Assembly (NCBI GenBank): GCA_964016885.1
Contig: OZ024751.1
Location: 38,068,001-38,132,000 of the forward strand
Reading direction: 5' to 3'
DNA length: 64,000 nucleotides
Source of the DNA: Eledone cirrhosa
Taxonomy: Eukaryota
The stretch's first letter is position 1. Each line of letters begins with the position of its first letter. The position numbers and the translations under genes were made by a program. Of the stretch, positions 1,222 to 63,277 are shown in pieces. Under the pieces are notes generated by a model. The model did no database searches. It was not told the origin of the DNA and saw only the letters and a list, made by a program, of their open reading frames with translations.

Positions 1222-1418
1222 AATGATATTAATAAATGGAAACTATCTTTATAAAACCATATTTATTCTATTATATATATTTCAAGTGTAGCAAAACTTA
1301 GGTACGCTCTCATCAGATGAAATACAAAGTTTGTTTTATAAATAGTGTCATAGCCAGAAATATATATAATAGAATAAAGATAGTTATAAATATATTTGTT
1401 GAATTACCAACAAATTAA
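1222..1418 (-). mobile_element. TA-adjacent hammerhead element, family C (homologous to 17927-18184), partial fold-back
   Basis: Shares 'attaa(t/c)aaatggaaactat.tttataaaaccatatttatt...tcatcagat.aaat' with 18021-18120; 1357-1378 is an inverted copy of about 1262-1283. Confidence 0.75.
1265..1323 (-). ncRNA. Type I hammerhead ribozyme
   Basis: Minus strand: atttcat CTGATGA gagcgta..tacactt GAA ATATATAT A atagaat; palindromic stem III, AUA triplet, imperfect stems I and II. Confidence 0.7.
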
Positions 1419-1466
1419 ATATCCCTTTGCTTAAAAAAAAAAAAAAAATATATATATATATATATA

Positions 1467-1683
1467 TAGAAGTGGTTACACAACAGTTAGTTCACCATAC
1501 TGAGAACAATTGTTTCACCTTAGCGGAACCTCAGCTCGTAATACACGAGCTGAGGATCCGCTACGGTGAAACAATTGTTCTCGGTATGTTGAACTAACTG
1601 TTGTGTAACCACTTCTACCTAACTCGTCCCATGGACTGAGTGCTCTACCACTACGGATATTACCTTCCAGTGTTCTACCACTA
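1467..1683 (+). mobile_element. TA-embedded fold-back hammerhead element, family D
   Basis: 151-bp near-perfect palindrome 1467-1617 (loop AATAC 1540-1544) plus a unique 3' tail 1618-1683; (TA)n on both sides. Confidence 0.88.
1546..1583 (+). ncRNA. Minimal type I hammerhead ribozyme
   Basis: cgag CTGAGGA t ccg cta cgg t GAA ACAATTGT T ctcg; all core nucleotides present, palindromic stem III, GUU triplet (predicted cut after 1579). Confidence 0.9.
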
Positions 1684-4600
1684 TATAAACATATATATAT
1701 ATATATATATATATATATATATATATATATATATATATAGTTAAATAGTGTGTAAGACTATCTTACAATTCTTAACATTTCCTTTGTCGATAGAATCCGA
1801 TTATGCGAGAGTCGCAAATATTACGTTGCCAGATATATCTTAGCGGCTACGAATGGCTGGAAAGCTAATTACAACAAGCATTGTTTTAGAAAACATTGGT
1901 TCTTACCATTTTCCTAACACACGATGTCTCATACATGGCAGAGCAATCATTTTAGTAGATTCATAACTCTCTCTCTCTCTCTTTATATATATATATATAT
2001 ATATATATACATATATATATATATACATATATAAGCGCGTGTGTATATTTACATACATATGGACACACACATACACAAACATATATTCATACTGACTTGC
2101 TGAAGTCAGAGATTTTCCTACGAATATAAAATCCGTGCAGGAAGAAAGAAGAGACGACAACAACAACAACGACAATAACAACAAGGGCGACAATAACAAC
2201 GGCAACTGTGATGCGATGTGATAGCGTGAAGTTGAAGTGATCAATAATACGCTTATGTATTGATACACTAGGTCAAGAGAAATAATTTGATTGTTAATAT
2301 CATCTTGTGTAAGCTTAGCCAATATTTTCATAACTCTTTGTTAGCATTATAACTTTTCAATTAGTCACCTTGAGACTCTGTTAATCGCACACTTGTATCA
2401 AGAATATTTCAGCACCCGATCTCATTTGTAATTCCATTACAATTTACTGATAAATATAACCGTAAAATTAGTGTACTCTATACGAGGCTACAAGACAATA
2501 GTAAATAAGTCACGTCACTGTCATAAACTCCTAATAAAAAGAAAGAAATATAGAAAACTAGCAGAAATATCGCACATGTTTCTACTAGTCTCTCTCTCTC
2601 TCTCTTATATATATATATATATATATATATATATATATATATATATATATATATATATATATACACGTGCCTGTGTTTGCGTGTGAATTTGTGACTATTT
2701 AGCTTCCCTTTTTGCTACAAATATTAGGAATCTACTCACTATTGGTACTCCTGCTCAATCTTATACTATATATATATGCATATATGCATACATACATAAG
2801 TTCTTACATATATACATACGTATATACATACATACATGTATGCATGTTTACATAAATAACTATATACACACACGCATACTTACATGCAAACCTCTTAAAA
2901 TATCACGAATTCACAGCCGAACAACTTTAACGTTCACTATAGTAACAAGCACATTTATTTAACTCCTAATAAAAAGAAAACGCTTCATAACTTCATATCT
3001 ATATTGTACAAACAAACAAACAAAAAAAATATCTATATATATATATATATATATTTCACTACTGTTATATATTTCCTTCTATATGAATATTAATGTTTCA
3101 AACGGTGCGATGAACAATATTTCGACTAATTATAGAACTTCTACACCACATATAATTTTTTTTTTATCTGAAGTGAAGTACTGTGGAAAAAATTACTGGT
3201 TATATATATATCGAGAGAGAGAAATCTGTTTTATATATACATTATATATATATATATATATGTTATACCCATATTTATGTGTGTGTTTATATCTTATATA
3301 AACACATACATATTTGTACAAGATATATGTTATTTTTTATACACATAAAGCCCATGTTAAATACTAATCCGTTTATGAATATATGCATATAATTACAGCT
3401 GTTTGTTTTCTTGTGAGATGGGACATGTGTTTCACTGTTTAGCTTATAAGTGTATTTAACCATTCCCATCTACAGCGCATTAAGGCTCTGCAATACATCT
3501 TTGAAGTGTAGCTCTGGCTTCTATGGCTTTATGTGGCTATTACCATCCTTTCAATAGTACCAATTAATTTACACACACCTACACACAAATATATAGATAA
3601 ACATATATATATAGAGAGAGAAAGAGAGAGGCATACATACTCACACAATTCTCTCTCCCTTATATATATATAAATATATATACATACGTATCTGTATACA
3701 TACATACATACATACATACATACATACATATATATATATATATATATATTTATATATATATACATACAGATTCGTATATATATATATATATATATATGTA
3801 TACATACACATTCATATATATATATATATATATATATATATATATATATATGTAAATCTGTTTGTTTATTGCAATATTTTTTGTTAATGTTAATGCTTAC
3901 TATGTATTGTACAGTTTAAGAGGAGGAATATATTCTAGACTTATTATAAAAAATAAAAAAAATAAGAAGAAAGCATGGCATGTTTATCATAATTGCTTCC
4001 CCTTTATCGTTGCGGGCAATTGCAAATGGGATTATTGAAGAATGCGTCCTTAAGGGAATATTAATAGTCGCAGTGGTAGTTATAACAATGATGATTATGA
4101 TGATAGTGATAATAACAATTATAAATATAATAACAATAATAATAATATCAACAATAATAATATCAACAATAATATTATCAACATATGTTGAGGATAAAAC
4201 AAATATCGAATAATACCACCCAACACCAATTTGTCAGCAGATAGTATCCTTTTGAGCACGTTGAGGAATTTATCAAATATTTAAATGGAATTTTACCAGC
4301 ACAAAACAAAATCAATTTATAAAGAATATGTGAAAGGAAAACTAAAAAGTAAATCTACCTTGAAAGGGGAAAAATATGTCTCGGTAGATCCATGAATATT
4401 AACTGATAAAAGGGGCTAAGAACAACAATAACAATATCAAGAACAAAATGAAAATCAAAGGCTTTAGAAGCAACAAAAAAGGAACATTCTCAGAAATGGC
4501 AAAAAAAAAAAATGTAAATAAATAAGTAAAATAAAAATTCGCAAAAATATATAAAGAAGCAGCCGCCATTAGTAGCCACACCACCACCAACAACACTAAA

Positions 4601-62620: not shown

Positions 62621-62673
62621 ATATATATATATATATATATATATATATATATATATATATATATATATATATA

Positions 62674-62891
62674 TAGGAACGAGTAGGACCCCGACGGCTG
62701 AGCTCAAGCCGTTTCGACGGCTAATTCTGGACTAAATTCTGGACTAAATTTAGTCCAGAATTAGCCGTCGAAACGGCTTGAGCTCAGCCGTCGGGGTCCT
62801 ACTCGTTCCTACTACCCACTCTACTACCCTAAGTATTGAGTACTTTGGTGCGTTATGGTCCACCTGGTTCCTTACCACATTTCCTTCGTTA
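62674..62891 (+). mobile_element. Family A fold-back element (half hammerhead)
   Basis: Palindrome 62674-62811 with a 12-bp stutter (attctggactaa x2) at the apex; tail ends 'ttccttcgtta(ta)n'. Confidence 0.93.
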
Positions 62892-62987
62892 TATATATAT
62901 ATATATATATATATATATATATATATACATATATATATATATATATATATATATATATATATATATATATATATATATATATATATA

Positions 62988-63277
62988 TAATATAAGATCA
63001 AAAGATGGTTAAAGGAGTTCCATGTATTTTATTATGCGCATTTCAAAAACAAACATCATCAAGCAATAATATTTGTGTTTTCATCAGATAAAACAGGAGA
63101 ACATGATATGAAGGGTAAAAAGCACTTGTGGATAGTGCAGTTTTAAATCAACATGGAACTCCTTTAACCATCTTTTGATCTTATATTATGTATACTCCAG
63201 TCCTACAAACTGTAGAGTGCTTCTTATCCGATATCTGCATTGCTTTATTGTACTACAATAAAACTCACCTCCTACAT
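62988..63277. mobile_element. Family E hammerhead element with internal inversion
   Basis: 62988-63154 is collinear with 8378-8544; 63151-63277 is the reverse complement of 8290-8414. Confidence 0.92.
63027..63093 (-). ncRNA. Type I hammerhead ribozyme
   Basis: ttttat CTGATGA aaacacaaatattatt gct tgatgatgtttgttttt GAA ATGCGCAT A ataaaa; intact core. Confidence 0.88.

Follow-up and report, generated by a model that had tools for sequence, protein, structure and literature searches.

The stretch of DNA analysed here, referred to as the window, comprises 64,000 nucleotides (nt) of the Eledone cirrhosa genome (OZ024751.1, positions 38,068,001-38,132,000), which is assembled as 3.0 Gb in about 30 large contigs. 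Its base composition is 70% AT, and (TA)n tracts are abundant. A preliminary description of the window had listed about 20 short non-coding islands in or against these tracts, in at least eight families, and had taken them for separate non-autonomous fold-back retroelements bearing hammerhead ribozymes. All 21 listed coordinates are borne out, and the islands sort into 12 families (A-E, G, G2, H-J, K1 and L). They appear as products of Penelope-like elements (PLEs), targeted to TA and carrying type I hammerheads, with the enzyme encoded outside the window, as had been proposed; no PLE open reading frame (ORF) was found within it. The designation as separate non-autonomous families is wrong for most islands, since six families (14 islands) join Hydra-type coding sequence for reverse transcriptase (RT) and GIY-YIG endonuclease elsewhere in the genome. 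Each family has two fixed 3' ends, termed long and short, and arms are named by the end that they reach. Numbers prefixed with L denote loci fetched from the same genome, and P0001 denotes the protein of the Hydra-type parent of family H. As the genome searches scored top candidates only, no copy numbers are claimed.

The clearest link to a coding parent is that of family H (27598..28308), which consists of a long arm at 27598-27897 (minus strand) and a short arm at 27911-28308 (plus strand), with a U4C-core hammerhead in both. It is 99% identical to the pseudo-long terminal repeat (pLTR) of two elements (L115 and L116) whose 832-codon frames are intact, and its two stop points coincide with those of the coding copies. 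This young family, reached from a PLE ORF that adjoins one fetched array, has 131 scored matches, dozens of them with open frames of 830-832 codons. P0001 combines RT motifs with a GIY-YIG-like motif at the C-terminal end in a single ORF of 832 codons; it has DKT instead of DKG, RWR at the RWK position, a CxCx5C linker, and CxxC and CxH motifs. These motifs, together with a by-eye likeness to published Hydra proteins, suggest that the family H parent belongs to the Hydra clade. A Pfam search with the Hydra-type protein gave no match, while 286 homologues were retrieved, Argonauta being represented. For most of the database relatives (P0002-P0121) the contig measures 2.3-2.9 kb, roughly the length of one element, which is what assembly of tandem or circular templates would yield.

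Family A accounts for six islands. A long arm (minus strand) is joined to a short arm (plus strand) at 14157..14361 and 62194..62379 (both assigned to the minus strand), and a short arm (minus) to a long arm (plus) at 62676..62889 (plus strand), a pLTR of a Hydra-type PLE; each of the three retains the 3' half of the hammerhead only. The others are a tail at 40306..40385 (minus), a copy at 54379..54513 (plus) with its fold-back point inside helix III, and a deleted remnant at 58250..58344 (minus). Copies with the order pLTR-ORF-3' untranslated region-pLTR occur in L303, L305, L307 and L308, with broken frames in those examined, and the family A tail passes directly into the leader and start of another Hydra-type ORF. 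Family D is represented by a single arm ending at the short site (1225..1344, minus strand; whole hammerhead fold, core at 1316) and by a lone long arm (17927..18183, minus; whole hammerhead, core at 18113), a Hydra-type PLE end; it lies 1.1-1.3 kb downstream of a Hydra-type endonuclease in 4 of 19 loci.

Families C, E and I are ORF-linked at one locus each (L071, L076 and L254, respectively). Family C occurs as a lone long arm with a mutated core (8290..8546, minus strand) and as a Hydra-type PLE end at 62990..63276, where a short arm (minus) with a whole hammerhead (core 63087) is followed by a long arm (plus). Island 1467 and the stretch up to 1690 form a single family E element (1469..1690, plus strand), in which an inverted short arm (1469-1542) precedes a long arm (1545-1690) with a hammerhead core at 1550 and a tail hairpin; it is likewise a Hydra-type PLE end. 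Island 56904 comprises two family E tail pieces (56906..57033), which face outward from a 56-nt TA tract and bear no hammerhead. Family I (29004..29342, minus) is a lone long arm of a Hydra-type PLE, having a hammerhead with a helix II region of about 100 nt. The ORF-linked pieces of A, C, D, E and I are 34-59% identical to P0001. Judged by these links, 14 of the 21 islands (families A, C, D, E, H and I) are truncated pLTR ends of coding Hydra-clade PLEs. Copies joined to PLE RT and GIY-YIG ORFs, proposed earlier as a check, have thus been found for these six families. The preliminary description held that novelty would fall if all families were already annotated pLTR fragments; an origin as pLTR fragments holds for the six families by their ORF links, a comparison lying outside Dfam and Repbase annotation.

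Two further islands, those of family B, are probably pLTR remnants. At 7486..7668 (minus strand) a long arm (minus) is joined to a short arm (plus), with the cores kept and helix I lost at the joint; at 62412..62619 the arms are similarly disposed, with a whole hammerhead in each. Family K1 (54576..54775) combines a long arm (minus) and a short arm (plus) with a U4A-core hammerhead-like fold and a tail hairpin. Family J (42751..42900, plus) is a short inverted arm and a long arm with a tail hairpin, and no hammerhead. Island 59333..59687 contains pieces from two families, a K1 tail piece (59333-59378) and a G2 fold-back (59408-59687).

Hammerheads were scanned for with a canonical core, helix I of at least 4 bp, helix II of at least 3 bp, and helix III of at least 2 bp plus the A15.1-U16.1 pair, against 60 local dinucleotide shuffles and with the 311-nt array of family G reduced to one unit. 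Seven canonical-core type I hammerheads were detected in the window, as compared to none in each of the 60 shuffles, and a variant-core scan added two folds, both in island 27597 (shuffle mean 0.07). The type I architecture (conserved core, three helices, open helix I) is present, and all nine folds lie inside listed islands. By scan or by eye, a whole fold is present in 10 islands (1222, 1467, 17927, 23625, 27597, 29003, 54576, 54941, 62411 and 62988), that of 54576 with a U4A core change; the fold is damaged in two (7485 and 8289), reduced to the 3' half in three (14155, 62192 and 62674), and the core is absent from six (40304, 42751, 54377, 56904, 58247 and 59333). The earlier statement that most islands carry a full or half hammerhead therefore stands (15 of 21), and the six palindromes given for helix III were all found, while Rfam support for the hammerheads is lacking: no match reached the gathering score, and at E<=10 there was none in two sub-regions and none among the 150 listed of 510 matches for the whole window. 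The U4C core of H and the U4A core of K1 are each fixed within the family. Helices III of A and G2 are long enough for monomer folding, and the G10.1-C11.1 pair is often missing. The true core of family A is a U3-A8 variant that lies further upstream, its copies stopping in the helix II loop; the notion that they stop inside a canonical core was rejected, as the 7 and 14 pattern matches behind it were joint sequences selected by the pattern.

The association with TA is strong when measured at the ends themselves. Enrichment within 300 bp of (TA)n, the measure suggested in the preliminary description, is uninformative because 67% of the window passes it. In loci not chosen via the family concerned, however, long ends directly abut TA in 84 of 100 arms (A 29/33, B 8/14, C 10/11, D 7/9, E 3/3, I 5/6 and K1 22/24), as compared to 13 of 63 for a short interspersed nuclear element (SINE) and 12.5% for random positions in the same loci. 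The insertion structure of endonuclease-bearing (EN+) PLEs is found here, i.e. a (TA)n target, an inverted truncated partner and a tail at one end. Rather than a trait of particular families, the fold-back is the shape already known for PLE insertions.

Two fixed 3' ends are seen in each family for which copies suffice, and the two are used in a regular manner. Among 61 unselected same-family inverted pairs, 49 are long with short, one is long with long, three are short with short, and eight have an unclassed end; long with short hence makes up 49 of the 53 pairs with both ends classed, where free choice would give about half. When selected loci are included, 109 long-short pairs are available, of which 29 have a short arm, and 11 a long arm, that extends beyond its partner by more than 25 nt in the 5' direction; therefore, neither arm is always a copy of the other. 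Such reach in either arm is compatible with two cDNAs, for which both strands of the target served as primers. Pairs are overwhelmingly of one family (163 same-family and 3 mixed by script with a 17-sequence library; more mixed pairs were seen by eye in L254, L298 and L339). The 5' ends of family A are clustered, 19 of 39 unselected matches starting within a 14-nt stretch of the helix II loop, which could be the 5' end of a pLTR-driven RNA or a strong stop. Family A joints (L001-L037) often contain short copies of nearby arm sequence, which resemble the inserts of templated end joining.

Three islands (23625, 54941 and 59408) are, as deduced from their unit structure, ORF-less head-to-tail retrozymes. 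Family G is an array of 311-nt units, with a long-ended arm (23625..25810, minus strand) of 7.0 identical units and 7 hammerheads, and a short-ended arm (25826..27500, plus) of 5.4 units and 5 hammerheads; the joint at 25793-25827 contains a short 7-nt repeat. It was followed in 16 loci including the window, the top matches among the 150 listed of 364 unit matches. These hold 165 full units, in arms of up to 17.5 units, counts which depend on the assembly. Two opposed arms are present in 14 loci; in 13 of them the arm ends lie near unit positions 166 and 140, one arm at each, and the fourteenth runs into a gap. The longer arm is short-ended in seven loci and long-ended in six. In four loci, all full units of the two arms bear a change private to that locus, another variant is common to four, and eight match the reference, whereas sporadic changes are rare and not mirrored between arms. 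Locus-private variants running through all units of both arms fit rolling copying of one circle.

Family G2 has a 319-nt unit, 66% identical to G in the same register; it is head-to-tail, with two cores 319 nt apart in L214, and its core is absent from the window copy. Elsewhere, U3-A8 takes the place of the C3-G8 of G in the core of 23 of 23 G2 matches, a swap that points to selection for cleavage. The 517-nt unit of family L (54943..55999) forms a long-ended arm (54943-55422, minus strand; hammerhead core 55181) and a short-ended arm (55432-55999, plus) of 1.1 units, which crosses the unit junction. In 26 loci, 18 L arms end close to unit position 58 and 15 close to 170, 112 nt apart; the arms cross the cleavage junction and extend to about two units, and two cores one unit apart occur in L247, L322 and L334. 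A coding parent of G, G2 or L was found in none of the top-match loci (16, 29 and 26, respectively). No RNA holding the 311-nt unit was listed; contigs of four runs cover it, and array and circle are indistinguishable from them. In three runs labelled as other organisms, one 340-nt contig each contains the whole 311-nt unit at 98-99% (query window 25830-26700). At L339:4494-6459, a family L arm that ends at its long site and a Hydra-type coding arm meet by their 5' ends, a joint which possibly records both RNAs in one insertion; a nested insertion is the alternative.

A bulged hairpin lies just past the short end in all 10 non-G families, including the 517-nt L. Its outer stem has 4 bp and its inner stem 3-6 bp, of a sequence that differs in each family, and a bulge of 1-2 nt lies on the 3' side. 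As exceptions, the loop of family I is 63 nt and one of two B copies fails by a mismatch. A second hairpin lies 6-14 nt past the long end in A (2/2 copies), in a sister family of H and in L (2/2); the inner stem of H itself is not strong enough to qualify. Family L keeps both Hydra-type hairpins though no ORF follows, and hence likely uses a Hydra enzyme. Of the present observations, these twin hairpins most strongly suggest a link between a retrozyme and a named helper clade. The same fold is visible by eye in published sea cucumber Hydra consensus sequences (two copies in Hydra-1_Ajap and one in Hydra-2_Ajap) and in the entry of a coral order that precedes Hydra-1_Obim. The hairpin pair, the rule of one long and one short arm, and two-armed retrozyme arrays had no description in the literature searched, most subscription journals, Repbase and Dfam lying outside that search.

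The ORF links, the TA abutment, the two fixed ends of each family, the long and short arm of each insertion, the hairpin past the ends and the ORF-less units of G, G2 and L are brought together by a reading which is considered probable: most islands are truncated Hydra-type PLE ends and three are hammerhead repeats without genes; a Penelope-type enzyme that primes both strands at two fixed RNA sites likely inserted them all into (TA)n, likely using circular RNA in the case of the repeats. The GIY-YIG domain would nick both strands of (TA)n, and two RT domains would start at the long and the short site, 6-8 nt 5' of the hairpin in families A, H and L. Each RT would copy toward the 5' end of the RNA, usually stopping early, and two cDNAs, usually from one RNA, would be joined at their 3' ends to give a tail-out inverted pair; on a self-cleaved and ligated circle the RT would continue round and produce multi-unit arms. 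Such priming of both strands has a precedent in the PAc (Poseidon) protein: it cuts both strands, extends both, and uses two internal start sites, whereby a tail is made (PMC11167929). A more specific proposal is advanced tentatively, with the balance slightly against it: Hydra-type enzymes may read a clade-wide hairpin pair as start marks, one per strand, the 517-nt self-cutting circle having kept both to hijack them, and the 311-nt family may record such priming of both strands, with as many as 17 rounds of one circle.

If all families were non-autonomous ribozyme elements moved in trans, the absence of a PLE ORF from the window and the ORF-less tandem units of G, G2 and L would be expected, as would the large excess of short copies over long ones (beyond the 3' core half, an upstream reach exceeding 50 nt was seen in 1 of 39 unselected family A matches). 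The connection of six families to coding sequence refutes this for A, D and H; moreover, joints vary from copy to copy, so the short fold-backs were made anew and not copied from a short master, and the explanation is very unlikely. A single target-primed cDNA that stops, snaps back and self-primes the inverted arm is likewise improbable, though a little less so. Self-priming has been proposed for PLE palindromes (PMC3846280), and the arms start within 25 nt of each other in 69 of 109 pairs (51 of 54 in family A), but the short arm has sequence missing from the long arm in the 29 pairs noted above (in L071 as much as 2.3 kb), and a tail absent from the short arm is present in the long one; nor would sporadic changes in G arrays be confined to one arm, or a few pairs join two different families.

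Two-strand priming might also operate with no circle, the multi-unit arms arising from linear multimeric transcripts or from tandem amplification of DNA after insertion. Uncleaved RNA is the main PAc substrate in vitro (PMC11167929), 8 of 9 Xenopus retrozyme dimers did not cleave (10.64898/2026.07.22.740005), and copying from few source arrays would give the same pattern of one variant fixed in four G loci and eight loci matching the reference. The four private changes, each fixed over both arms, would however need a one-unit bottleneck at least four times. The older G2 and L have at most about two units per arm; ageing arrays thus show no growth, although shrinkage may occur. A further argument against this explanation, which is regarded as unlikely, though less so than the other two, is the core pair swap between G and G2.

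Several points weigh against two-strand priming on PLE RNAs and circles as set out above. Cleavage, expression and circles are predicted from sequence alone, and the hammerhead is not required for insertion by PAc in vitro (PMC11167929). Uniform arrays could also stem from local amplification or from linear multimeric RNA of a source array that had been homogenised, and the G loci are biased to the youngest because they were top matches. Arms within 25 nt in 69 of 109 pairs are also expected from a simple fold-back. One locus each carries the links of C, E and I, and in L071 ORF and pLTR are separated by a TA tract; for family B, an endonuclease lies in the opposed arm in 2 of 19 loci, across a microsatellite. 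No coding parent of K1 was found upstream in 19 loci, and neither a parent nor a second copy of J in the fetched loci. The hairpin is absent in place from G and G2, and from a Neptune-type family; its pattern occurs in 60 of 3000 shuffled tails (2%), which is not an independent p-value because the pattern was defined on the same tails.

Other candidates for a parent or helper were rejected. The walk upstream of K1 reached a Helitron-like element and not an ORF; in L258-L276 the K1 hammerhead region, as far as the short end, forms part of this repeat. The endonuclease peptide led to the Neptune-type family, which is TA-ended and has a hammerhead, and shows no match to any window island. It is abundant (L133-L162), with a CxxC linker and frames of 840 codons and more; its two ends are about 55 nt apart, and 17 of 18 long ends lie at TA. 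The RT at 19052-20935 is not a helper but a long interspersed nuclear element (LINE), 5'-truncated and frameshifted, lying between TA-rich tracts (18970-21020; Pfam RVT_1, E 3.8e-21). Its 3' end abuts TA in 2 of 3 copies, and in L298 the 5' end of such a LINE piece meets that of a family L arm.

Other features were also observed in the window. A further TA-ended tail family, absent from the preliminary description, lies at 8563-8653, with 8 of 8 long ends abutting TA. About 2.2 tandem units of about 516 nt occur between TA tracts at 41585-42724, outside the listed islands, with a hammerhead-like 5' core but no matching 3' half; this sequence also follows the Helitron-like element in L268. Flanking DNA is duplicated in inverted orientation around a TA tract at 39922-40263 and 40412-40754 (343 nt, 95%), and similar TA-centred duplications occur at 56906-57033 and in L033, perhaps from hairpin repair at (TA)n. 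A SINE-like repeat of about 180 nt is present in eight copies or pieces (8974, 12632, 22261, 38261, 50229, 52877, 53969 and 60800); it is the SINE with which TA abutment was compared. No tRNA gene was found.

The feature is thus real and mostly of a known kind, namely PLE debris; annotation as pLTR fragments is advised for about two thirds of the islands. The new part is the retrozyme arrays and the shared start hairpins. Retrozymes are considered likely PLE parasites, PLEs and multimeric cDNA having been proposed with no shared motif known (PMC7761336 and PMC7229834), and the questions of which enzyme moves them and whether it rolls round a circle become testable, L giving a motif and G a very young footprint. 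For the inverted pairs and tails of PLEs, mutations can be aimed at exact positions supplied by the rule of one long and one short arm and by the hairpins, and for expression there is a Hydra ORF that is intact and high in copy number. If the hairpins do act as marks, they would be the first sequence-level handle on the enzyme moving an animal retrozyme and on the origin of PLE inverted repeats. Active Penelope families have been described in an octopus, with no mention of hammerhead, retrozyme or Hydra in the available text (PMC13282606).

The closest known system is the Hydra clade of EN+ PLEs (PMC8557442; File S1 includes the octopus Hydra-1_Obim), which shares the RT with C-terminal GIY-YIG, the DKT, CxCx5C, CxxC and CxH motifs, insertion in (TA)n, the pLTR hammerhead, the inverted truncated partner and the tail at one end; the File S2 row of Hydra-1_Obim likewise has U at the cleavage position. 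The present genome adds at least six further families, with an element of about 4.3 kb (H) rather than "generally <3 kb" and tails of 70-160 nt rather than 30-40. The doubled bulged hairpin is not mentioned in the available part of that work, yet is visible by eye in its coral and sea cucumber consensus sequences. Poseidon PAc (PMC11167929) is alike in cutting and extending both strands, in its two internal starts, AT-rich target and predicted dimer; it belongs to another clade, its start sites lie in an AC-rich stem-loop inside the ORF, and the available account derives neither the inverted pair nor the pairing of one long with one short arm. 

Metazoan non-LTR (long terminal repeat) retrozymes (PMC7229834; PMC7761336; 10.64898/2026.07.22.740005) resemble G, G2 and L in their non-coding head-to-tail units, one type I hammerhead per unit, low GC and occurrence beside PLEs. 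Circles and cleavage have been demonstrated in published retrozyme species, whereas G, G2 and L are known here as genomic sequence. They differ in being inserted as two opposed arms with PLE ends in (TA)n, and L carries the Hydra hairpins, whereas the review, as far as available, gives no conserved helper-indicating motif in metazoan retrozymes (PMC7761336). The minimal PLE hammerheads (PMC4209133) are similar in their many divergent families per genome, palindromic helix III, U3-A8 variant and opposite-strand pairs, and are mostly truncated PLE copies. As compared to them, some helices III described here (A and G2) allow monomer folding, the G10.1-C11.1 pair is often absent, and the U4C (H) and U4A (K1) changes are fixed.

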